Assembly: GCA_902500205.1 (NCBI GenBank) | Contig: GCA_902500205.1_4868.1 | Origin: Escherichia coli | GTDB taxonomy: Bacteria; Pseudomonadota; Gammaproteobacteria; Enterobacterales; Enterobacteriaceae | Reading direction: 5' to 3' (one strand) | Length of the DNA: 64,000 nucleotides | Position numbers and translations under genes: made by a program | Shown: positions 2,178 to 60,126 of the stretch, piece by piece | Layout: every line of letters begins with the position of its first letter | How positions within the stretch are numbered: the first letter of the stretch is position 1 | Notes under the pieces: generated by a model | The model's database searches: none | What the model was told of the DNA's origin: nothing | Seen by the model: only the letters and a program-made list of their open reading frames with translations

Positions 2178-4439
2178 CTATCGCGCTTGTGGTAGGAAAA
2201 TGTTCGCGATTTGTCGTGCTGGTATGATATCTAACGCGGCGTTGACGATGCTGCCCTGTGACCAGGCACTTGCCCAGTTCTGCGCCCAGATAGACGCGTT
2301 GATTTTAGCCTGCGCGATACCGTTGGTACGCTCGTAAAGCGTGGCAGCGCCCAACACAGACATAAATTCACTGAACTTGTTATCATCATCAAACACACCA
2401 ATATCGGTTACAATCGGCATGTACATAACGCGTGACAGGTCACGAATAGTTACCTGTATATCACATGACAACGGCAGACCGTCAGCACGCCACCCTAACC
2501 CACCTGTACCAAACTGGAGACTCAAGTTAGTTACCATGGCATTACGCATGGAATAACGACCACGAGAATAACACTCCAGATAGAACGGGTGCGTAAACGA
2601 TTGTTTACCGGTTGCTAACGGGCAAACTGCCGCTAACCAGAACGACAACGGGACAATCAGATCCTGGAACACATCTAAGTCGTTACCCGACCAACAGCGA
2701 AGGGGAATGCTTAGCGAGATATCGTCACCTGAGGTGTCTGAGGAGTCCCACACTTCCGGGAAGTCAATCACTGACGAGTTGTACAGCGACATAATCCCTG
2801 ATAAATGCAAGAAATCGAGTGCGCCTGTAAAGGCGGACTTCAACCCAGTAATGAGACCATCGACTGCGTCGAAACCAGTCTTACCACCAGAGAGGTTTAC
2901 TTCTAAAGAACGTGCTTTCTGTGTGGCGGAGTTAACCGTGCCAGAGATTTCAGGTTCTTTGGTGGTGTTGGAGAACGAACGCCCTACGGTATCACGTCCA
3001 TCAACACGCCAAGTAATCCACTGCGAACCATTGCGTATCTCCGAAGCGATGTTCGAAGTTAACCCATCCATAGCGCCTTCTAAAATATCGATATAGTCTT
3101 TGAAGACGCTACCGACAGATTCTTTCTGGCCTTGGTCCATCCAGTTTTCAATCTTCCCAATGTCGAGATTATTCTCATCCATTGAGTTTGCTTCGGTCTG
3201 ACTTTTAGCAACCTGTGCCTGGTTCTTTTCAACCTGTGCCATACGCTCGGCAAGCTCTTTACGTTGCGCATCACCTTCGTTTTCGAAGTTTTCAGCTTTA
3301 CCTCCTTGTGACTGAGCATCCTGAAGGCTTCCGTTCATCCCTGCTACCAGTTCGTCTTCTTTGTTATCGACGTTTTCAAAACCGGCATCGTACCCTTTAC
3401 CGGCTTTGGCTACGTATTCAAGGTTACGTAAAGAAACCTCGTACTGCGCAGCTTTCTCCAAATGGGTTGTTGAGTACGTCGCTTCCAGATAGAAGTTTCG
3501 CAAACGACGAGCCATGTCCTCTTCGTTACTCGACTCTTTACGAATTTTATCGATGGTTTTCGCCTGGTAGTTGGCTAATGTTTGGTAGCGGTTAATCATT
3601 CGATAGATATCGAACTCACCATCAGCTGTCCAGATTTCTGGCAGCATGGAGTACCACTCTTTACGGTCGCCGTTGTACTTGTTAGCAGTACCGCCTTTCT
3701 CAGACCCATCTACAGCATTAGCAAGCTGGAAAGTCCCTAACACACCCGTTGGCACCAATCGGCGATAAACTAACTGGGTGTTGACCATATTCTGCACAGC
3801 GCGCAGATACAAGTGCATTGTCGGTTTCACGTAGTAGTAGCGAGAAGTCTGCTTGTTCAGCACCATCTTCAACATACGTGGTGTAATTAGAATAACCGCA
3901 AAGGCAACCGTACCTACTGCGGCCCATATTGCTGCGGCGGCAACATACGTCCCCATCGCACGCAACATACCAGGGTAGTCACCTGTGCGCGCCAGATACG
4001 CTAGGTTGGAATCGTACATATTCGCGAAGAATGCAGCGACCCCGATATATCGAGGTTTACCGAAACGACAATGAAGATAAAAACTGTTTTGGTTAATAGC
4101 TTCGTAATAGAAAGTCCCTAAACGATAGGAACCACGTTGGTCTTGACCTTTAACGTACTTTGAGTACGAGCCACGACCTGCATCAGGTTGTGCAAAAGCA
4201 CCTGTTGAACTCGGATCAGCAAACATCGTAAACTGCGGCGGCGCATTTAACGCTTGCGAACCACCCATCGTGGTATCTTCAAACGAGAGCATCGCGTTAG
4301 AGTAACGACGCAAACCCAGGAAGCGCTCATCGCGTTGTGCGGTTGTACCGCCAAACAGGCCGGTTACCCATCCTGAATCTTTTAGTTGTCTTGCTTCCAC
4401 GTAAAACCTCTCTGTAAGATGATTAGGGGGTGTTGCCAC
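2178..4439 (-). CDS. hypothetical large protein (753 aa) with coiled-coil region and one hydrophobic segment
   Basis: GTG start 9 nt downstream of giant gene stop; hydrophobic stretch TYVAAAAIWAAVGTVAFAVILI. Confidence 0.7.
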   Translation of the reverse strand: MATPPNHLTERFYVEARQLKDSGWVTGLFGGTTAQRDERFLGLRRYSNAMLSFEDTTMGGSQALNAPPQFTMFADPSSTGAFAQPDAGRGSYSKYVKGQDQRGSYRLGTFYYEAINQNSFYLHCRFGKPRYIGVAAFFANMYDSNLAYLARTGDYPGMLRAMGTYVAAAAIWAAVGTVAFAVILITPRMLKMVLNKQTSRYYYVKPTMHLYLRAVQNMVNTQLVYRRLVPTGVLGTFQLANAVDGSEKGGTANKYNGDRKEWYSMLPEIWTADGEFDIYRMINRYQTLANYQAKTIDKIRKESSNEEDMARRLRNFYLEATYSTTHLEKAAQYEVSLRNLEYVAKAGKGYDAGFENVDNKEDELVAGMNGSLQDAQSQGGKAENFENEGDAQRKELAERMAQVEKNQAQVAKSQTEANSMDENNLDIGKIENWMDQGQKESVGSVFKDYIDILEGAMDGLTSNIASEIRNGSQWITWRVDGRDTVGRSFSNTTKEPEISGTVNSATQKARSLEVNLSGGKTGFDAVDGLITGLKSAFTGALDFLHLSGIMSLYNSSVIDFPEVWDSSDTSGDDISLSIPLRCWSGNDLDVFQDLIVPLSFWLAAVCPLATGKQSFTHPFYLECYSRGRYSMRNAMVTNLSLQFGTGGLGWRADGLPLSCDIQVTIRDLSRVMYMPIVTDIGVFDDDNKFSEFMSVLGAATLYERTNGIAQAKINASIWAQNWASAWSQGSIVNAALDIIPARQIANIFLPQAR

Positions 4440-4448
4440 CCCCTACGA

Positions 4449-7400
4449 TTAGCTTGCTTTCCGACTTACGTTTAACGACGGTGTCGGTTGGGTTATTTCC
4501 TGCCTACGTGCAGCTGAGCCCGGAGGAGCCACATTTGCCGCTTGCTGGATACTACCACCCCGTGTGTCGTTTGCCGCTCTTGGATTTGATTTCAAAATAT
4601 CACGAATCTCTTTCAAGTAATCGCGAGACTGAATCAGTACCTTGAGCTGCTGAACATCTATCGGGTCACCATTCAGCGTTGGCGTCGATGCTGTAGCATC
4701 AGAAGTTGGAGCGGCAACTGGACGAGCTGCTGCGTTAACCTGCGCTTCCGCGCCTGCTTTCACTTTAGCAACATCCGTTGCAGACAATCCTTCTGCTGCA
4801 GCTTGCGACGCTACGGTTTCGGCTGTTGTTGAGGCATCGGATGTTCCGGAACCACCTGTAGTTGGTGTAGGTGCTGCTGGTCCTACATTACCTGCGGCGG
4901 TAGCCATTGCATCTTGTGCCGCCATGGCCCCTTTCTGCGTCAATGCGTCATCACGACGATTAGCATTATCTGCTGGCAGGTTATCTGCTGGCGACAGACT
5001 CGGGTCATTAGCGGCCGGTGCACCCATTGCTGCTGCCGGGTTGGTTGGTGAGTTAGGCGACAATCCTGCAACCATATCCTTCGTCTTGCTCGGGTCGGCA
5101 GCGACTTCGTTGGCGGAAATTGCGCCCATGCGGCGGTTCAGTTCCTGAATAACCCCGTCTACGCTACGTATACGACCGTTGCTGTAGAAGACGTTGGCAT
5201 TCCCTCTCAATATTGCGGATGTAATCCCAGGAGCACTCGATGCCGCCATGTTCGGATTACGCTTCCATGCTTCCAGGAATTTCTTACCGCCGCCTGCACC
5301 CAGGAAGTGGTACAGATAAGCCACGGCTGGAGGTGGTGCTTTACCACCCAGGTCACGCTGTGCTTGTTGGATGTTGTCACGAATGAACTGTACACCCAAT
5401 ATAGCATTCGCCCACGGGTCCATTTGGTTAACACGCGGAATACCAAACTTCCGCGAATACCCCTTCATCATCCCGTTCCACGTGCCGTCAATGAACTGGA
5501 ACAGCCCAGACGCCGAAGCATACGGGTTTTTAGCGGTGTAGTTAAATCCGGACTCCGCCTTAGCCATTGCTAACGCCACTGCAGGTGGCACGCCCATCAT
5601 GTTCGCCGCATCGGTAATCAATGCTTTGATATTCGGAACGTTCAACGCACCCTTTCTACCCAACATTTCTATCGGGTATTTTTCAGCCAGTGACTTATAA
5701 TCACCGTCTTTCACATCACTCAGGTTAATCGAAGACGAACCAGTGGTCATTGCAGCGTAGTTCCGCACACCACCAACCGCATCGACGACTTGACCCAAGT
5801 TACCCGGCACACCACCACTCGTACCCGATGGAATGTAGCCTGAGGCGCGAGCACCGTCAGATGACAAAGAATCTCCCGAACTGATGTTCGAGTCTTCTTC
5901 ATCTTCATCGGTGACTTCCAGAGAACTGCGGTTCTTGTTACGATCCTTCCAGCGCGCACGCTTGCCATTATTTCTAATGGCTTTAATCATGTTACGCACG
6001 GCAAGGTCAGCTTCTTTTGACAGCAGCTTCAGCGTTTCCAGTTCGGCTTTGATGGACGATGGGTTCGTGTTAGCCTCACCCCCTAATGGGTTGATATTCA
6101 CTTCCCACACCGACTGTCTTATACCACCTTTCAAGCTGTAGGCTGTTGACATCATCAAGCTGATTTCGTACAGGTAGCCGCCGGTCAGCTTCAAGTTCAG
6201 CGGATCGGCTGTTGGCAGGTAACGCTTCACCCCAACCAAATACGTCATGAATACCGGTAAGAAACGGTCAAAGAACCACCGTTTCAAACGATCTTCTTTC
6301 GGTGTACCGATAGCGTCTGGAACCATCGAGGCGATTGCTTTCTTCCAATCTCCTTTGTAGCTTGCGGTTTTCACGTCAATGTCTTTGATGACGTTCTTCT
6401 CGAATACCGTGATCAAAGTGCGGGTGGCGTTATCGATGGTGGTAAAGCCGTAAGTCTTCCAACGCACCGATTCCATCGCATTCATGTCTTTCTGGTCGAG
6501 CACCGCATTCCAGTCTACCTGAATCTGAACCTGCTCTGTTCCGTCTTCCCAACCTTCTACCTTCGCCAGATTTTTGTTACGTTCGTTATCCAGCTGTCCT
6601 AGTTTGTTGATAGCTTCATCAACGCCAGCGGATTTAATCCCCTCCACGGCCGGTGCCATTCCGTACTTACGTGCTTTCTTATCGTCCATTCTGGACTTGA
6701 TTGCACGCTCGACTTCATTCTGCACTTCCATAACCTCTTCACCGCTCAAAAACTCCTTCGGTGTAAAGGTTACGACGTCCCAAGCCTTCGAGAAGAAACC
6801 TTGGTTGACTTTGCGTGGGTCAGTTAACGAAGAGAACGCTTTTGCATCCTTAGTCATCTTCATTTTGTTGAAGAGAGTCAGCATGTCCTCTTTCGATACT
6901 TTCTTCGCATCGCCGACGTCAGCCAACTGGATACTGTTCGGCATTGACTTCAGTGCCGTAATCCAGCGGAGATAAATCGGAATAAAGCGCTGAAGCATAA
7001 ACGCTTGGAAGGCCAACATCTCGCCTTTTTCCTCAACGTTAATACCGAACCCTTCAGCTAGCTTCTGAACGTCTTTTCCACTTAGCCCGCGGAGACTGGC
7101 TTGGCCATCTTCCGCGTAAGACACATACTCACGCAATGCGTCTTCTAAGTAACGCGCTTTCGCCCCGTCGTCCGACGACCACTTATCGTAATCACGGAAA
7201 CCGTACTGAGCTAAACGCATCTTATCCAGGTACTGGGTATAGGTAGTCGTTGCAATCCTGTACGCGGCGTAACCAGCCGCGGCGATCGCACCACCGATAA
7301 GAATTGCCGGCCAGCCCACTGCTGTCACGACGGCAGATGCCGCAGTTGCCACAGCGGACACCGCGGGTGCCGCCAAACGGGTTACTGCGAACTTACCGAC

Positions 7401-37633: not shown

Positions 37634-38767
37634 ATGATGAACTATGAACGTAAGCACGCGTGGCAAGAAAAGCTACGCACGGGACAGATACATTCTGCCC
37701 AACAAGTGAAGATGTGGGTGCTGCCGCACGGCGTCATCTGCGAAATGGTCCAGGTCGGAGGATTACCTATTCTTCGAAATGGTAAATACGATTCGATGAA
37801 CACGGTACTCGCGCGCTTGCTGGCCGATGCAGGCATAATGGGTACCGTGATTTTATATTCAACCGCAACGATTCCCCAGAATCTTTCTCGCTGGTTAACG
37901 CATTGGCTTTCCAATGACCCTGGCGAGGACGATCCGTGGCTACGTTCGATGACAGTGACAACAATGGGTCAACGGCCGACGAAACCCCTCCCATTCCAGG
38001 TCAATGTAATTGAACCAGCTATTCTGGAAGCGGGTGAAGTGTTTGAAGCAATCAAACATCGATCTCGCGATGTTAGCATCAGTCAGTTTCTTATCGAAGC
38101 GAATGATGTGACTTACCGGCTGGAACCTGTACGACGTATGGACGCTCGTATCGTCGACTGCACAGAGTTCGGTTATGTCTTGCGTACACAGGGCAACCAT
38201 ACCTTCCTGGCATCGATGCTCTCTCGCCGCGTGCAGGGACAGTTAGCACACTACAAAGTGTCCCCTGCTGACCTCGTCGGTACCGACGTTAAGGTCGAAT
38301 ACACAATGTTTACCGAAGGGAATCGACTGTGTAATTTTAAGTCTCCGGTAGTCTATCGGAGTAAGGCACTTGATGCCTTAGGCGACCAGAATGTCCCGAC
38401 ATACGATGGCCCCTATCCGTTTAAATCGCAAGCATCTGCAAACCGTGCGCTCCTTACGGTAACTCGGTGTAAACGCGCAGCGATCACACTGACCGACGGG
38501 GAAATTTATGGTAAGGACACTGAGTCTGACGCAAAACTCTTTTCGTTCCGGCGTGGTGTGAAACCTGGATTGTATGCCGCGACGTTTGAAAAGGGGGATG
38601 ACGTCGAGTTCTGGCAGTTCGACAGCGATTTCGCAGTAGATGCGATTGACCCAGATGCGTTAGTGAGTGTCATCACAGACCAAATCTTTTACGCGACGGG
38701 TATGAACCTGCTGGAAATCTTTTTAATGTACGATGCCAGATTACCTTCACAGTCAGTCAAAACGTAA
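37634..38767 (+). CDS. hypothetical protein (377 aa)
   Basis: ATG with AAGGAG upstream. Confidence 0.75.
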   Translation: MMNYERKHAWQEKLRTGQIHSAQQVKMWVLPHGVICEMVQVGGLPILRNGKYDSMNTVLARLLADAGIMGTVILYSTATIPQNLSRWLTHWLSNDPGEDDPWLRSMTVTTMGQRPTKPLPFQVNVIEPAILEAGEVFEAIKHRSRDVSISQFLIEANDVTYRLEPVRRMDARIVDCTEFGYVLRTQGNHTFLASMLSRRVQGQLAHYKVSPADLVGTDVKVEYTMFTEGNRLCNFKSPVVYRSKALDALGDQNVPTYDGPYPFKSQASANRALLTVTRCKRAAITLTDGEIYGKDTESDAKLFSFRRGVKPGLYAATFEKGDDVEFWQFDSDFAVDAIDPDALVSVITDQIFYATGMNLLEIFLMYDARLPSQSVKT

Positions 38768-38777
38768 GGAGCCTCCT

Positions 38778-39287
38778 ATGTTTACTGCGCCAACCATGCG
38801 GGTGGAGCAAGGTCTTAACCTGGTGGTACACGACCAGCGGTTAATCGACCTCTGCGACACAAGCATAATTACTGCGATGATGGACCATAACCCTTTAGGT
38901 GACTACGGAAATACCAGCGAGATTTTGGCTGTTGCTGCCGTCCTCCGTCGTATTTACGGTCAAATAACCATCGTAGATCTCTGTAACTTCATTGACAACC
39001 ACAGAGATTTAACTAAAGGGTTGGTCGCACTTACTCAAGATGGGGTGTCAAGTTTTGACAGTTCTCTTGGTAATTTCCTAGACATCGGTTCCGGGTTCGA
39101 CTCCGGGCTAATGTTCATCACTCGTGAACGCTACGTCGCCGTCTGGGAATTTCTGCAACGCATGGGTGTGCATGTTCCTGCAAAGATCATGCATTACCAA
39201 ACTTACGACCTGAATATTTTCGGGGAGCCAGGGTTATGGATAAAACCAGTACACCTTGGCCTTGATGGCTACACCATCAAGTGTTAA
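38778..39287 (+). CDS. hypothetical protein (about 169 aa)
   Basis: ORF 38733..39287; ATG at 38778 has AGGAG upstream. Confidence 0.65.
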   Translation: MFTAPTMRVEQGLNLVVHDQRLIDLCDTSIITAMMDHNPLGDYGNTSEILAVAAVLRRIYGQITIVDLCNFIDNHRDLTKGLVALTQDGVSSFDSSLGNFLDIGSGFDSGLMFITRERYVAVWEFLQRMGVHVPAKIMHYQTYDLNIFGEPGLWIKPVHLGLDGYTIKC

Positions 39288-39292
39288 GTCAC

Positions 39293-39345
39293 TAGGCGTA
39301 CTCTCTTCGGGGAGTACGCCAATCTTATTTTTTTTATTTTTTTGG
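39293..39345 (+). terminator. intrinsic terminator
   Basis: Hairpin GGCGTACTC-TCTTCGG-GGAGTACGCC followed by TTATTTTTTTTATTTTTTTGG. Confidence 0.7.
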
Positions 39346-39770
39346 TTACTTTTTAACCAACCGGTTAAAGGGGTCTGGGAAGCATCAGAAAACGATTAGG
39401 TGGTATCGACGTAGGGTAGCTCGTTTTTGGCAGTTTATCGTTTTCTAGGGTCTGTTACGTGCGTTTTAGAGGGGGTTATGTATCGAGACAGAGAATTTAT
39501 TTTTGTCGGGGCGAGGAAATTCAGGGAATGGGGATTCAGGATTGTATGTTTTTTAACCAGTTATTAAAAACGCTCTAGAAAGCGCTAGAACGAGATTTAA
39601 CTCAGACCCAGTACACTTGGGTTCCCTATACCGGAAAATCGCGCCAGCGGGCCGCTGAGAGCGCGAGAGAGCCATTCCCGTTTCGGTTCCGAGGTGACGG
39701 TCGCGGCCGGCGACGACGATCACACGTTGGGTAGCACTTCGTGCCATGTCTGGGTGAAAACTGGATCGTT

Positions 39771-39796
39771 CTGTAACCGACACACACTGTCGGTTA
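39771..39796. other. perfect 10-bp stem-loop GTAACCGACA-CACAC-TGTCGGTTAC in ORF-free region
   Basis: Read directly; no T-run downstream. Confidence 0.4.
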
Positions 39797-39905
39797 CTTA
39801 CGAGTTCTTTGGGTTGTTTAATTCACTCTAAAATCCCCCTTAGGGGATAATTTAATCTAATTCTCAAAATTTCTTTTTAAAACAATCACTTAGATTGTTT
39901 TTTAG

Positions 39906-40150
39906 ATTGATCCTGTGGATCGGGTCGAAGACCCTTTCCTTATACGCGTGCGCGTGCGCGCACCCGTATCCTCCAGGATCTTTTAAAATATATAATAATA
40001 TTAAATATAATAATACCTTTAGGTATTATATTTAATTATTATAATTATTTATATAAATAAATATATTAATATATTAAGATCTTAAAACGCGTGCGGGCGC
40101 GCGCGTGATCCTTATTAAGAGATCGTGATCGGACGGAAGACCGAGATCGG
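39906..40150. other. origin-like dyad element: AT-rich core flanked by alternating-GC boxes and 8 GATC sites
   Basis: ACGCGTGCGCGTGCGCGCAC (39944-39963) and CGCGTGCGGGCGCGCGCGTG (40088-40107) flank a 96-bp core of about 95% AT with dyad centre near 40019; 8 GATC in 240 bp. Confidence 0.45.
39981..40076. repeat. AT-rich low-complexity core (ATA/TAA repeats) with central inverted repeat
   Basis: Arms ATAATACC / GGTATTAT around TTTA centre; bounded by GATCTTTTAAAA and AAGATCTTAAAA. Confidence 0.6.
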
Positions 40151-40280
40151 GTACCCTGTGTATTTTTTACGTGGTTTCCCTATCGTGTGTTCAGACCACC
40201 ACTCGATGTCCAAAAACCCATAGCTTCGGTGGTCGCCTCCCTGGTCGGTAGACTCTGACAAGTCGACCCACACCACCAAC

Positions 40281-40303
40281 CCGTCCGGGGACGGATTTTT
40301 ATT
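40281..40303 (+). terminator. terminator-like hairpin plus T-run inside ORF-free region
   Basis: CCGTCCGGGGACGG followed by ATTTTTATT. Confidence 0.35.
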
Positions 40304-40358
40304 CCAACGACAAGCTCCACGAAAATCCCCGCAGAGGGACTCACTGCTGTGTGACTCA

Positions 40359-40398
40359 CCGGCTCCTGGACGCCTACGCCTCGAGCCGGTAATTTTTT
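40359..40398 (+). terminator. terminator-like hairpin plus T-run inside ORF-free region
   Basis: CCGGCTC...GAGCCGG stem followed by TAATTTTTT. Confidence 0.4.
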
Positions 40399-40489
40399 GA
40401 TTACGTGAGTTTGTTGTTATATGCGAATAGCGATTGACCGCGCCAATGGTCCAATCACTTTTTAAACCCTGCACGCTAGGGCTCCAAGT

Positions 40490-40519
40490 CCTGGGATTGA
40501 TACCCAGGACGCTTTTTCG
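40490..40519 (+). terminator. terminator-like hairpin plus T-run inside ORF-free region
   Basis: TCCTGGG-ATTGATA-CCCAGGA followed by CGCTTTTTCG. Confidence 0.35.
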
Positions 40520-41056
40520 AAAATACCTGCCGTGGTGTCTTCGACAAAGCGCAATCTAACACTGCGTGATTTATTATGTTCTGGAAAACTTTCGCCGTGG
40601 AACAGAACCGGTGAGCGTCGGCGGGGATTCCGACAATCACCACCCATTCAGGTACTCGGTAGATAACCGACCTGCCGACGGTGCTACGTCGGGCGTAGTT
40701 CGGTTTGCGAGAGTGTCGAGAAAGTCGACTGCGCACCCATGACAAAATCCGAGTTGACCGTGGCAGCGCCAGAGGACTGGGCAGCGGAGAGACGTCGTTG
40801 AACTTACCTCCGATAGTTATCGCTGATTCCGCTCTGGCGTCGGGCCAAAACTGATTCGAATTCGGCGTTGCGTCGAAAAGGGGTCTGCGTGTAGAACCGC
40901 AGACTTGGGGGATAACTCCAAAGTGGGGTGATCGGATCTTGACGGCTCGGAATAGACGAGAGGGGTGGGTACTCCCGTTGAGAAACGACGGTACCTGGCT
41001 GATTAAAATTTACAGATTCTGCGTGAGGTATGATAAACCAAACGGAGAATTAAACC

Positions 41057-41632
41057 ATGAACTTGTATCGCGTCGGGTTTTACCGAAACGAGATGCCTGA
41101 ATCGGTTTTGGTTGTCTTAGCCGAAAACGAGGAGCAGGCCAAATCCTTCTGGCCGGTTAGCGCAGAGCGTCCAGCGGTTGCGTGCTGCTACGACGGCGCT
41201 GTGTCTACCCCGATGGTTACGCCTGGGGTGGTTCTGAAGCAAGGCCGATGGGAAGATTACTCCCATCCCGGTTTGGAGTTTGTTTCCGAACCTGCCAGAC
41301 ATTCCTGGGAATTTCCCTCAGGCAACACCGAGACGTATTTCGGATTTCAGGTTAAACAACCTTCGACGCTCAAACTGTACCTGGTGTACAGCGACGCCGC
41401 TACCGAAGACTACGTCGATTCCGGAATCATCGTCGGGGCAACAACCCCTGCTGCGGCATTCGCACATTGGGACGGTGATAAACCCGGAATCGTTTCGGTC
41501 TGTGAGCTACCACTTGAAGCCGGTTTGGTTACGAACATCAAGTGTGAGCAAGGCCAGGAGCTGACTTGGATGCGCCAGGATTACCTGACGGAAACGACAT
41601 TCGAATACACACCGAGGAGGGTGACCCAATGA
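41057..41632 (+). CDS. hypothetical protein (191 aa) built from two tandem copies of a roughly 80-aa domain; translationally coupled to HslV-like gene
   Basis: ATG with GGAG upstream; stop TGA overlaps next start (ATGA); N-half and C-half share LY..(D/E)..IV.A.T..AA pattern. Confidence 0.65.
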   Translation: MNLYRVGFYRNEMPESVLVVLAENEEQAKSFWPVSAERPAVACCYDGAVSTPMVTPGVVLKQGRWEDYSHPGLEFVSEPARHSWEFPSGNTETYFGFQVKQPSTLKLYLVYSDAATEDYVDSGIIVGATTPAAAFAHWDGDKPGIVSVCELPLEAGLVTNIKCEQGQELTWMRQDYLTETTFEYTPRRVTQ

Positions 41633-42212: not shown

Positions 42213-42288
42213 AGGAAAGTGACGCAATTGGTAGCGTACCGGTCTCCAAAACCGGCTGTTTAGAGTTCGAGTCTCTACTTTCCTGCCA
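42213..42288 (+). tRNA. tRNA-Trp (anticodon CCA) with encoded 3-prime CCA
   Basis: Hand-folded cloverleaf: 7-bp acceptor AGGAAAG/CTTTCCT, D-arm ACGC/GCGT, anticodon stem CCGGT/ACCGG with loop CTCCAAA, T-arm TAGAG-TTCGAGT-CTCTA, discriminator G then CCA. Confidence 0.85.
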
Positions 42289-43636: not shown

Positions 43637-43706
43637 GGCTTTGTAGCTCAGGTAGGTAGAGCAGCCTCTTCGAGGAAGGTCGCCGGTTCGAGACCGGTCA
43701 AAGCAA
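43637..43706 (+). tRNA. degenerate tRNA-like element (possible pseudo-tRNA)
   Basis: Canonical D-arm (TAGCTCAGGTAGGTAGAGCA) and T-arm (CCGG-TTCGAGA-CCGG) but mismatched anticodon stem, 1-nt variable loop and G1-A72 mismatch. Confidence 0.3.
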
Positions 43707-55110: not shown

Positions 55111-55156
55111 AAAAAAAATAAAAAAAAGAACTACACACCGAAGTGTGTAGTTTTTG
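55111..55156. terminator. bidirectional intrinsic terminator
   Basis: A-run, hairpin CTACACAC-CGAA-GTGTGTAG, T-run; between convergent genes. Confidence 0.65.
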
Positions 55157-58414: not shown

Positions 58415-59923
58415 GTGAGAAAGGTACCAAAATTCTACGGAATATCCGGCCGGTTGGTTAGTCAGGATAACTATTTGTCCGATTTGCAAATAGAAGCTGC
58501 TGCCAAAGGTATTAAACCACCCACTATTATTAACGATGTCGCCGTTAACGGGGATGCGATCGAGGTTGCTGAACTTATCGATCGCATGGTACAGAACAGA
58601 ATCGTTGACGAAGAACTGAACTCTGCACCGATTTGTAGTTTGGATTGTCCGGCACCGATCGCGCATCGTTACAATCTCGGTTGTAAGTGTCCGACGTGTG
58701 GCTATGTTGTAACTGAACATCGAATTGAATCCGATGTCTGGTTACGTGCACCCGATGAAATGGGTAACTTCGTCAACCCACGATTCTGGGCAATGTTCAA
58801 TGCTTTCTTTAATAGCAAGTTGAAGAAGTTTGAACGTAACAAGGTCACTATCGAACGCGGTAATGACTTGATGATGTGGATGATTGACCCGTATTACCGT
58901 ATAGAAGAACCAGACGGTAAACGCGCACATGCTGTGAAACGTGTATTGGAAGAACATGGTTTCGTTCGTGGCTTGCGCAATCTGGTTGATAACCACGTTA
59001 GTATCTTTAACATCCTTACCACGCCAGAAGCCTGGAAGGAAATCTTCGCACCTAATCGGCATAACGCCGCTGAAGGTGAACGCTTACGTTTACAATGGAA
59101 GGAGCTATTCGAAACGCAACGCCATGCATTCTTCCCAAGACACTTACCGCTAATCTCCTCTAAGCTTATCGTTACTGAGGAAGGTCGTCGTGGTGTCATG
59201 GTAGACCCAGTGTTCACGGGTGCTATCGATGCGGTGAAAAATATCGCGTTACTTTATACGCGGCGTAAAGCGATCGAACCACGTTTTCTGATTAGTCGCG
59301 CTTTGAAAGCCAACCGTCAGTTAACGTACTTCCACATGGACTTCCGTCGTGAGTCTATGGAAGGTAAACCGGGTGACTATCGTGCGAAATTGGGTTCTAC
59401 CCATATCCCATTCGGTGGTCGTGCAACCATCTCACCTATCTCAGAACCACACGATGCCTGGAAGTTAAAAGCACCATGGCGTTGGATGGTTGGGTTGATG
59501 TCGACCCACATCGAGAACAAACTGCTACGACGGGGTTATTCGTCACGGCAATGTGAACGTATCGTTGCAAAAGCGGCAATGCAGTATGACCCGCTTGTAG
59601 ATGAAATCTTTAAAGAACTGATTCGTGAATCCCCAGGCGGTCTTGGGATCATGGTCATACCGCTACGTAACCCAACGCTGGTACAGTTGTCTATTCAAAC
59701 GCTGTACATCGATGAAGTTGTTACCGATGTTAACCAGTGTTCGCTGCGTATCTCTGACCGTGTGATCAAGATGGCTAACGGTTCGAAAAGAGCCCCATCG
59801 GACGGGAAACCTCTGATGCGTATTCTCCTGAAATGCTGGGAAACCCTAAAGCGTATCTACCAGAAATGGGGACGAAAGTCTGAAACAACAGATACGATGG
59901 CCTACGCTAAACAATACTGCTAA
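58415..59923 (+). CDS. RNAP beta-prime-like N-terminal subunit, 5-prime exon (frame reads on into candidate intron before stopping)
   Basis: Zinc-ribbon pattern CSLDCPAPIAHRYNLGCKCPTCG near residue 73-95; LRNPTLVQLSIQTLY resembles beta-prime NRAPTLHRLGIQAF; NADFDGD absent from this ORF. Confidence 0.75.
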   Translation: MRKVPKFYGISGRLVSQDNYLSDLQIEAAAKGIKPPTIINDVAVNGDAIEVAELIDRMVQNRIVDEELNSAPICSLDCPAPIAHRYNLGCKCPTCGYVVTEHRIESDVWLRAPDEMGNFVNPRFWAMFNAFFNSKLKKFERNKVTIERGNDLMMWMIDPYYRIEEPDGKRAHAVKRVLEEHGFVRGLRNLVDNHVSIFNILTTPEAWKEIFAPNRHNAAEGERLRLQWKELFETQRHAFFPRHLPLISSKLIVTEEGRRGVMVDPVFTGAIDAVKNIALLYTRRKAIEPRFLISRALKANRQLTYFHMDFRRESMEGKPGDYRAKLGSTHIPFGGRATISPISEPHDAWKLKAPWRWMVGLMSTHIENKLLRRGYSSRQCERIVAKAAMQYDPLVDEIFKELIRESPGGLGIMVIPLRNPTLVQLSIQTLYIDEVVTDVNQCSLRISDRVIKMANGSKRAPSDGKPLMRILLKCWETLKRIYQKWGRKSETTDTMAYAKQYC

Positions 59924-60126
59924 CGGTTGTGATAATGGGTAATCAGCAGCGAAGCCTCGTGAGAGGAACGTTCAACGACTATCGCTGAAATGCGAGTAGG
60001 GGTCCCAGTGGACTTCGAAGTGGGAGAACACCTAAGGCGATAGCTATGGTGAAGATATAGTCTGTGCCTTATCGAGAGATAAGGAGGGTGTCTTAGCACA
60101 CCTGCTGTATACGGAAACGGTATACG
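59762..60126 (+). mobile_element. candidate group I self-splicing intron (no internal ORF); boundaries approximate
   Basis: Elements resembling group I Q, R and S in order: AATCAGCAGC (59941), GTTCAACGACTATC (59970), GAAGATATAGTC (60051); GACTAT/ATAGTC can pair as P7; GNRA-capped hairpin CCTTATC-GAGA-GATAAGG (60067-60084). Confidence 0.6.

Follow-up and report, generated by a model that had tools for sequence, protein, structure and literature searches.

What lies in a 1.77-kb block that carries no annotated gene and divides the map of a jumbo phage into two gene runs? We addressed this question for positions 39,290–41,056 of a 64,000-nucleotide stretch of DNA (the window; contig GCA_902500205.1_4868.1 of the Escherichia coli assembly GCA_902500205.1), whose sequence matches Salmonella phage SPN3US and closely related phages at 94–98% identity; these are jumbo myoviruses of 240 kb in the genus Seoulvirus. 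The block is the unannotated gap between gene 38733..39287, the last of the conventional map, and gene 41057.., the first of a rightward run, and position 1 of the SPN3US record (window position 39873) falls within it. Both neighbouring runs are on the same strand, with packaging and structural genes to the left (in SPN3US, the terminase large-subunit gene is located ~3.4 kb upstream of the element described below) and a polymerase-rich run to the right, comprising small genes, tRNAs and genes for a DNA polymerase, an SbcD-like protein, the non-virion RNA polymerase (RNAP) and a helicase. An earlier inspection of the letters alone, here called the sequence-only reading, had described the block as ORF-free and harboring an oriC-like dyad element. 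We find that it consists of separate features. An AT-rich palindromic element of ~260 bp (about 39905–40148) follows an oriC-like logic and appears to be a cis-acting DNA site, for which a replication origin of SPN3US-like jumbo phages is the likeliest function, a reading that we put forward tentatively. Most of the remaining block belongs to a conserved + strand locus of structured non-coding RNA, which the sequence-only reading had missed.

The description of the block as free of open reading frames (ORFs) was confirmed. The longest of its mechanical ORFs measures 119 aa. In comparisons with SPAsTU (71% identity over the block) and pEa_SNUABM_29 (67.5%), however, substitutions were spread evenly over the three codon phases (162/166/151), without 3-nt periodicity, and the lengths of indels were mostly not multiples of three, leading us to reject coding potential. 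Three-way identity peaks at 39705–39800, 40386–40650 and 40828–41000, not in the AT-rich element.

An AT-rich palindromic element that is unique in the genome

The element is built from two GC-rich boxes that flank an extremely AT-rich core. GC box 1, ACGCGTGCGCGTGCGCGCAC, starts at 39944, and GC box 2, CGCGTGCGGGCGCGCGCGTG, at 40088, exactly where the sequence-only reading had placed its two alternating-GC boxes. The core between them (39982–40078, 97 nt) is 94.8% AT, in line with the 96 bp and about 95% estimated before. To obtain genome-wide counts, we rebuilt the whole 240-kb SPN3US genome from five fetched pieces. The best 90-nt window of the core reaches 95.6% AT, while the runner-up amounts to 73% in the 64-kb window and 74% in the entire SPN3US genome. 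Eight GATC sites (39909, 39918, 39977, 40078, 40107, 40121, 40127 and 40145) fall within 240 bp, the maximum of the window, against a window background of 2.4 per kb. The GATC density maximum of the 240-kb genome is found here as well, the next window holding four sites, so that the previously noted excess over chance is real at both scales. GC box 1 is, moreover, the longest alternating purine-pyrimidine run of the genome (23 nt vs 16 nt). With its AT content, GATC density and alternating run all at the genome maximum, this is a one-per-genome element in SPN3US.

Arranged from left to right, and with no strand assigned, the parts are as follows. A left GATC cluster (39909, 39918) with a TCCTTAT motif occupies 39905–39941; its positions vary by lineage, with the density being kept in 9 of 12 lineages. 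GC box 1 (39942–39969) is a palindromic alternating purine-pyrimidine run that forms a zero-loop palindrome in 8 of the 12 lineages, no two of which share the same box sequence. It runs into the most conserved junction, TTCCTnCAGGATCTTTTAAAA (39966–39990), which contains GATC 39977, the one common to 12/12 lineages in the lineage alignment. Composition and a palindrome scan define the AT core (39982–40078) with its perfect palindromes at 40010–40029, 40045–40060 and 40066–40077. The first of these is the central inverted repeat ATAATACCT-tt-AGGTATTAT that had been noticed earlier. GC box 2 (40087–40107; repeat scan and lineage alignment) is a palindrome whose length varies by lineage, and is followed in the lineage alignment by the conserved GTGATCCTTATTAAGAGATC and the right GATC cluster (40107, 40121, 40127, 40145) at 40105–40148. 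Box 1 and box 2 form a pair of direct repeats, and each is a palindrome itself. A dyad spanning the whole element, in which box 1 pairs with box 2, was the preferred fold for the SPN3US type and Asesino only.

Position and architecture are conserved across four genera

The search for the element in related phages, suggested along with the sequence-only reading, was positive: it is present at the syntenic position in four genera. In each relative examined, the element occupies the same slot, after genes encoding proteins of 377 aa and ~170 aa. The lineages comprised Seoulvirus (the SPN3US type, SPAsTU and SNUABM_29), Erskinevirus (Asesino), Machinavirus (Huxley, pSal-SNUABM-04, SNUABM_6, ChrisDB, Caitlin and SNUABM_4) and Wellingtonvirus (Kwan and SNUABM_11), as well as one IMG/VR contig and three metagenome contigs. 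Position and order of parts are kept in all four genera and in the metagenomic relatives, across which the flanking 377-aa protein shares just 48–60% identity. The common skeleton begins with an A/T-rich motif ending in ACTTA, followed by a variable segment (hairpin or GATC), TCCTTnnATTA, GC box 1 and TTCCTnCAGGATCTTTTAAAA(GAAT). It continues with the AT core, having palindromes at two positions, GC box 2, GTGATCCTTATTAnGAGATC, additional GATC sites and a T-run that leads into TTAC. Within this skeleton, both junction sequences, TTCCTnCAGGATCTTTTAAAA and GTGATCCTTATTAnGAGATC, are invariant.

Scans of viral, metagenome and bacterial-genome sequences yielded only relatives or chance matches, and the element was thus not found outside this clade. 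Among bacterial and archaeal genomes, the gapped pattern gave 0 matches and a 20-base motif gave 7, all attributable to chance. We also considered a miniature inverted-repeat transposable element (MITE) or other mobile element and rejected it, given that the element is single-copy, syntenic across genera and absent from the bacterial and archaeal genomes scanned.

Derbicusvirus (CR5, Derbicus and Phobos) carries a different element in the same slot. Here, GGGGGGATCAAGGGGGGATGGATAA is followed by ~130 bp of 78–80% AT that are nearly free of C on the + strand and contain the repeats ATTAG and GAATGAATG and the palindrome AATTGATnGTAnCAATTA (locus extracts: Derbicus ~6990–7170, Phobos ~6940–7120, CR5 ~6930–7110). 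After the element comes a hairpin and then TTATTTTTT..ATATATTAC directly before gene 1. The intergenic space of CR5 measures only ~550 bp, too small for the RNA locus, and the covariance model of the structured RNA R1 introduced below matched none of the three Derbicusvirus loci. An AT-rich site thus persists without the RNA locus, from which we conclude that an AT-rich DNA site is required in this slot in its own right.

The palindromes point to a site acting at the DNA level

GC box 1 and the two core palindromes retain perfect dyad symmetry in 12 lineages even though their sequence changes. Box 1 occurs, for example, as GTGCGCGT|GCGCGCAC, CGCGTAC|GTACGCG and GCGTGTGCG|CGCACACGC. One core position is filled by ATCCCgtaGGGAT or ATAATACCTttAGGTATTAT, and the other by ATACTACTAC|GTAGTAGTAT, AAACCCtacGGGTTT or AACTCtttGAGTT. 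Of 499 palindrome pairs, 473 are Watson-Crick and 26 are G-T, and the loops comprise 0–3 nt, often none. In contrast, the true RNA helices in the neighbourhood contain many G-U pairs. Perfect dyads that change in sequence, have tiny loops and hardly use G-T are thus expected of DNA dyads rather than RNA hairpins, and the palindromes point to a DNA-level site. When folded as single-stranded DNA, the element was more stable than shuffled sequences in 12/12 lineages (z = -4 to -8.5), the conserved fold being a row of local hairpins.

GATC density is maintained in most lineages alongside a phage Dam-family methylase

SPN3US encodes a D12-class methylase of the Dam family (96875–97669 of SPN3US, outside the window), as reflected by matches to PF02086 (E = 2.5e-52), TIGR00571 (1.4e-71), E. 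coli Dam (2g1p; 1.4e-54) and DpnM (1.9e-37). Judging from its family, the enzyme probably recognizes GATC, and an orthologue was found in all genera bearing the element. Genome-wide, GATC is depleted about two-fold in SPN3US (489 sites vs 937 expected, 52%). Near the element, 9 of the 12 lineages keep 5–8 GATC per 320 bp, compared to 1–3 per kb elsewhere in each locus. The only site common to 12/12 lineages is the one in CAGGATCTTTT, and no extended consensus or shared hexamer surrounds the GATCs in the 12 lineages. Because density is kept without such a consensus, selection seems to act on GATC density, as in methylation-sensing systems, although one subclade can dispense with the cluster. 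In the Derbicusvirus loci, GATC is rarer still (0.3–0.9 per kb).

A conserved structured RNA locus accounts for most of the block

Near the right end of the block lies a 150-nt structured RNA, R1 (40855–41004, + strand), with five helices, a GNRA-capped hairpin and the invariant core UCUUGGCGGCUCGGAAAGACGAGAGGGG. R1 aligns across the four genera with a 28-nt invariant core, TCTTGGCGGCTCGGAAAGACGAGAGGGG, and clear compensatory changes, and a covariance model built from it found exactly one copy in each of 15/15 element-bearing loci; the other parts of the SPN3US genome that were searched held no second copy. In the alignment, which was itself fitted to the model, 96.6% of cells were paired, compared to 36–47% in slid controls, and 17 of 34 pairs had changed on both sides. 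Covariation scored 0.446, as opposed to 0.04–0.09 for slid controls. Known RNA families do not account for the block. Rfam 15 returned no match at gathering score for R1 or the rest of it, the weak chance matches to miRNA, lncRNA and sRNA families up to E = 5 being scattered over 39200–41150, with none over 40855–41004. R1 is thus a well-supported new structured RNA with strong covariation, confined to this clade and located at the head of the early and replication gene run.

R1 forms the 3' end of ~520 nt of conserved RNA motifs that reach back to ~40481. In the 11-lineage alignment, the preceding part (40481–40854, + strand) starts with a hairpin at 40488–40510, followed by CUUUUUCGA, which pairs with UCGACAAAG, and by the motifs CCUAACAC, UUAUUAUGUUC, GAACUUACC and GGGCCAAA. 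RNAalifold, applied to the 11 lineages, recovered a helix whose inner stem shows four compensatory sequences per pair. The general form is a GC hairpin and then CUUUUUCGAGA, pairing with UCGACAAAG around this covarying inner stem. In Kwan (locus extract 3903–4412) and Wellington, a gene for an HNH endonuclease is inserted between the AT element and R1, with R1 remaining intact.

A second conserved non-coding block lies to the left of the element (39346–39865, + strand), its motifs being ordered alike in four genera. It contains TTTTTAACC motifs at 39350 and 39549 and hairpins at 39606–39622, 39734–39744 and 39773–39797, which contain G-U pairs when read on the + strand and in part show compensatory changes. 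Coding periodicity is missing. These hairpins are found 268–304 nt from the ACTTA motif, a distance that is near-constant across genera.

As conserved multi-helix phage non-coding RNAs (ncRNAs) of several hundred nucleotides, the transcripts predicted here resemble GOLLD, ROOL and the T4 stable RNAs, and a tRNA gene is close by, tRNA-Trp (42213) being located ~1.2 kb downstream. They differ from these RNAs in their helices and invariant core, in lacking an Rfam 15 match to E<=5 and in being confined to the clade.

A replication origin is the leading candidate function

How might such an element work? In the model that we favour, the ~100-bp core of 95% AT would be the site of duplex opening. 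The flanking GC-rich palindromes with purine-pyrimidine alternation may confine or promote this opening, either by clamping the duplex or by absorbing supercoils as cruciform or Z-DNA, and the junctions TTCCTnCAGGATCTTTTAAAA and GTGATCCTTATTAnGAGATC would be putative binding sites of a phage protein. Once methylated by the phage Dam, the flanking GATCs could couple firing to the replication state, since freshly copied DNA is hemimethylated. Transcription from a promoter-like motif located ~85 bp upstream could prime or activate replication, in the manner of T7 and T4 origins. Of this picture, the uniqueness, conservation and DNA-level dyad symmetry of the site, its GATC enrichment and the dam gene are observed, while unwinding, protein binding, a part for methylation, transcript priming and the choice of replication over packaging are inferred. 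We rank an origin first among the possible functions because the core is extremely prone to unwinding, because its structural brackets persist with their sequence free to vary, and because the site stands at the head of a replication-gene run, in a slot where an AT-rich site persists when all else is replaced. Also consistent with an origin is the genomic context, the element being positioned between structural and packaging genes and the run with DNA polymerase, SbcD, RNAP and helicase, with the gene for a predicted ligase-fold protein two genes upstream.

Several observations weigh against this assignment and keep it short of an even chance. The start of replication at the element is something we infer rather than see directly, and each of the origin-type features fits a packaging (pac) site equally well. 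No initiator gene was recognized, the structural model of the adjacent 169-aa protein being unusable (pLDDT 52). Flanking direct repeats or iterons were significant in only 2–3 of the 12 lineages and were dropped as a feature of the element. The GATC cluster, correctly identified by the sequence-only reading, is not universal, as the three Machinavirus lineages ChrisDB, Caitlin and SNUABM_4 have only 2–3 GATC left though Dam is retained. Exact DnaA boxes (TTWTNCACA) are absent from 39290–41056, and the two boxes with one mismatch correspond to 1.1 per kb, compared to 1.7 per kb in the whole window. Finally, the cumulative GC skew, proposed as a check on the origin, climbs along nearly the whole SPN3US genome, following gene orientation. 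On the + strand, its slope is the same at 1–111 kb and 161–201 kb, with no replication inflection. The skew rises throughout because nearly all genes are on the + strand; it therefore neither supports nor refutes an origin here. We likewise discarded the raw cumulative minimum at SPN3US position 1 as an origin locator, as it reflects trivial drift.

Comparison with known origins places the element outside the bacterial oriC family. Like oriC of E. coli and Salmonella, it combines an AT-rich unwinding region with a dense cluster of Dam GATC sites, and one of its conserved motifs, GTGATCCTTATTAAGAGATCG, is similar to GTGATCTCTTATTAGGATCG, the region of the R 13-mer. This resemblance is at chance level, its score being reached by 15 of 500 shuffles (3%) and by 7 of 500 random phage windows (1.4%). 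With regard to GATCTnTTnTTTT 13-mers, the locus thus offers an extreme AT core and one motif similar to the R 13-mer, with a score that shuffles attain. The E. coli oriC query matched 5425 of 5426 complete genomes, always at 95% identity or more and at 100% among the records listed. Unlike oriC, the element has no DnaA-box cluster, and its core is far more AT-rich, palindromic and bracketed by GC palindromes. Because the DnaA-box cluster is lacking, we do not regard the element as a member of the oriC family, and homology to oriC was rejected. A host initiator may not reach the DNA of a nucleus-forming phage. What survives of the oriC logic in the sequence-only reading is the unique conserved DNA site with its AT core, its Dam cluster and a phage-encoded Dam; membership in the oriC family does not.

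Other origins offer partial parallels. At the T7 primary origin and at oriF and oriG of T4, a promoter is located immediately upstream of an AT-rich unwinding element, in intergenic regions by early or replication genes. The present locus has a comparable layout, with a putative promoter motif upstream of an AT-rich element near early and replication genes. It differs in having GC-palindrome brackets and a GATC cluster, which to our knowledge are both missing from T7 and T4 origins, and in that its promoter is predicted only. By analogy, the palindromic AT-rich centre with conserved flanks also recalls oriS and oriL of herpes simplex virus (HSV), which are palindromic, have an AT-rich centre and flanking conserved protein-binding sequences, and are hard to assemble and clone owing to their dyad symmetry. 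There is no sequence or protein relationship to the HSV origins and no identified counterpart of the UL9 initiator here.

Weighing an origin against packaging, RNA-level and other roles

The nearest competitor is a pac site of a headful phage, organized as in P1, with GATC groups flanking a bendable AT centre that is cut by terminase in a Dam-timed manner. The P1 pac site spans 161 bp and carries 4 + 3 GATC-containing hexamers around an IHF site and the cleavage site, under regulation by adenine methylation (PMC10028697). The match in layout is close: both sites measure ~160–260 bp, here with groups of 3 + 5 GATCs around an AT core of ~100 bp, both phages encode their own Dam-family methylase, and the element is a unique site in a headful-packaging phage, ~3.4 kb downstream of the terminase large-subunit gene. 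The details diverge, as P1 has a fixed TGATCA/G hexamer inside pacA, whereas the GATC context varies here, without a common hexamer, and no known small terminase gene is nearby. A small terminase was not identified, and the adjacent 169-aa protein has no family match. In addition, SPN3US and phiKZ are taken in the literature to package by a headful mechanism of the T4 type that does not depend on sequence (PMC5694885, PMC6256631). Several public records begin inside the element (equivalents of 39873, 40008–40010 and 40071–40080), which at first sight favours physical ends. These starts are no independent evidence, as they reflect conventions or artefacts of files and assemblies. For the Brigham Young University (BYU) records, the start was set by convention, through alignment with the family (PMC6256631). 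In the SPFM1 record (LR535901), at least the first 4.5 kb consist of 60-base lines in reversed order, each line being forward, a file artefact. All other starts coincide with AT-core palindromes, at which assemblies would tend to break. We therefore rejected record starts as physical ends. Altogether, we consider a pac site unlikely, and sequence alone cannot separate it from an origin; the earlier statement that the element is an origin or possibly a packaging site remains the right short list, based on a unique conserved site with an AT core, a GATC cluster and a phage dam.

The line reversal in SPFM1 also scrambles genes and generates bogus 'hypothetical proteins'. From the 17–29 BLAST 'pieces' that each yielded, SPFM5-10, 12, 14, 15 and 20 appear to be similarly scrambled.

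A role at the level of RNA or transcription strikes us as less probable than packaging. Here the element would either belong to long non-coding transcripts, with four hairpins in a row, or separate the gene runs as a promoter, insulator or terminator module. It would fit the conserved structured RNA on both flanks, all on the + strand, the invariant promoter-like motifs ending in ACTTA and TTAC that bracket the element, the terminator-like score of GC box 2 and the location of the block between same-strand runs of unlike content. We disfavour it because the palindromes are zero-loop Watson-Crick dyads; with loops of 0–2 nt and almost no G-U, they are unlike the adjacent RNA helices. The GC boxes, moreover, have no U-run behind them, GATC clustering and purine-pyrimidine alternation have no rationale at the RNA level, and Derbicusvirus has an AT-rich element without the RNA locus. 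Least probable in our view is another DNA role, such as a recombination hotspot, a concatemer resolution site, a fork barrier or an anchor for positioning the genome in the phage nucleus. The site is unique, conserved and palindromic, and the phage encodes SbcD-like and SMC-like proteins acting on palindromes or DNA ends. No feature, however, favours such a role over an origin or a pac site, and no recombinase or partition gene was found beside the element.

Promoter- and terminator-like signals in the block

The transcription signals predicted along the block are all on the + strand. Its left end (39291–39345) is a predicted intrinsic terminator of the upstream operon, with a hairpin at 39295–39320 followed by two T-runs. 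It was located by the terminator scan, and a matching hairpin and T-run come after the homologous gene in every relative. The A/T-rich motif ending in ACTTA, AAAATTTCTTTTTAAAACAATCACTTA (39866–39892), is promoter-like and its ACTT is invariant in 12 lineages, while TCTTTTAAAA occurs on the + strand of the SPN3US genome at this locus only. An A-rich run followed by (T/C)ACT, the form seen at 39866–39892, resembles the description in words of phiKZ middle promoters (PMC8244752). Right of the element, a T-run and TTAC (40161–40170) introduce a conserved segment that ends in a terminator-like hairpin and T-run (40281–40302). The TTAC is invariant in 12 lineages, and identity to SPAsTU and SNUABM29 amounts to 71–81% over aligned parts. 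Together with the terminator scan, this suggests that 40161–40302 could be a small transcription unit. The AT element is thus bracketed by invariant A/T-rich motifs ending in ACTTA or TTAC, for which a promoter function is plausible by analogy.

A second T-run with TTAC, TAATTTTTTGATTAC, precedes the conserved TTATATGCGAA at 40390–40480, where three-way identity is 0.72–0.88 (40386–40445) and 0.62–0.68 (40445–40485); TATGC recurs in other genera ~20–25 nt past TTAC. At the right end (41005–41056), sequence comparison delineated an A/T-rich TTTAC motif and the leader with which the rightward run opens (first gene, 41057..). In SPAsTU, an extra gene separates this type of leader from the RNA motif. 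The T-run plus TTAC and the TTTTTAACC motifs also appeared in the de novo motif listing and are candidate promoters.

Across the window, a unit made up of a GC hairpin, a short spacer and T7-8 with G after it recurs in intergenic regions. It is present at 186, 1596, 25053, 25656, 39337, 45109, 47158 and 58393 on the + strand and at 55117–55126 on the - strand, and at 1596, 39337 and 47158 (N)TTAC comes next. TTATTTTTTT occurs 7 times, compared to 0.15 expected. For the phage RNA polymerases, the unit may act as terminator and promoter in one.

Neighbouring genes and other features of the window

Two genes upstream of the block, 37634–38767 (+) encodes the 377-aa protein, which belongs to PHROG 8136, of unknown function. 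Its structural model (pLDDT 85.7) matched ATP-dependent DNA ligases in Foldseek, T4 ligase being found with E = 2.6e-6 and probability 1.0, at low TM-scores of 0.3–0.4. Since the sequence has no obvious KxDG adenylation motif, the protein may be an inactive or divergent ligase-like protein. The adjacent gene, 38733–39287 (+), is listed as an ORF of 184 aa. Its true start is probably 38778, since residue 16 is where the PHROG profile and every homologue begin, and the annotated length in relatives is 169 aa. The 169-aa product has no Pfam match and belongs to a PHROG of unknown function, and its AlphaFold model gave no usable clue to its role.

Downstream, tRNA-Trp(CCA) at 42213–42288 (+) was called by both tools. 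A tRNA-like sequence at 43637–43706 (+) scored 36.4 bits in Rfam without an ARAGORN call, and SPN3US is annotated with a 'tRNA-OTHER' at about this place. A group I intron (Rfam RF00028, 69.4 bits, E = 1.6e-15) is located at 59763–60084 (+).

Discussion

The literature searched describes no replication origin or packaging site for SPN3US- or phiKZ-like (nucleus-forming) jumbo phages and, for SPN3US-like phages, no transcript map. One scenario would join the two halves of the block into a compact control region, in which the AT element is an origin gated by the phage Dam within the phage nucleus and the structured RNAs are its functional partners, acting as primer, regulator or scaffold. We offer this scenario, modelled on ColE1 RNA II and the mitochondrial D-loop region, as a speculative and improbable one. 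If true, neither an origin nor an RNA linked to one would have been described in this phage family before. The presence of both a GATC cluster and a phage dam suggests that methylation may have a regulatory role in these phages, beyond anti-restriction. For phage engineers, the block is a region to avoid or exploit, and having one sharply defined candidate of ~260 bp makes the start of replication or packaging in these jumbo phages directly testable.

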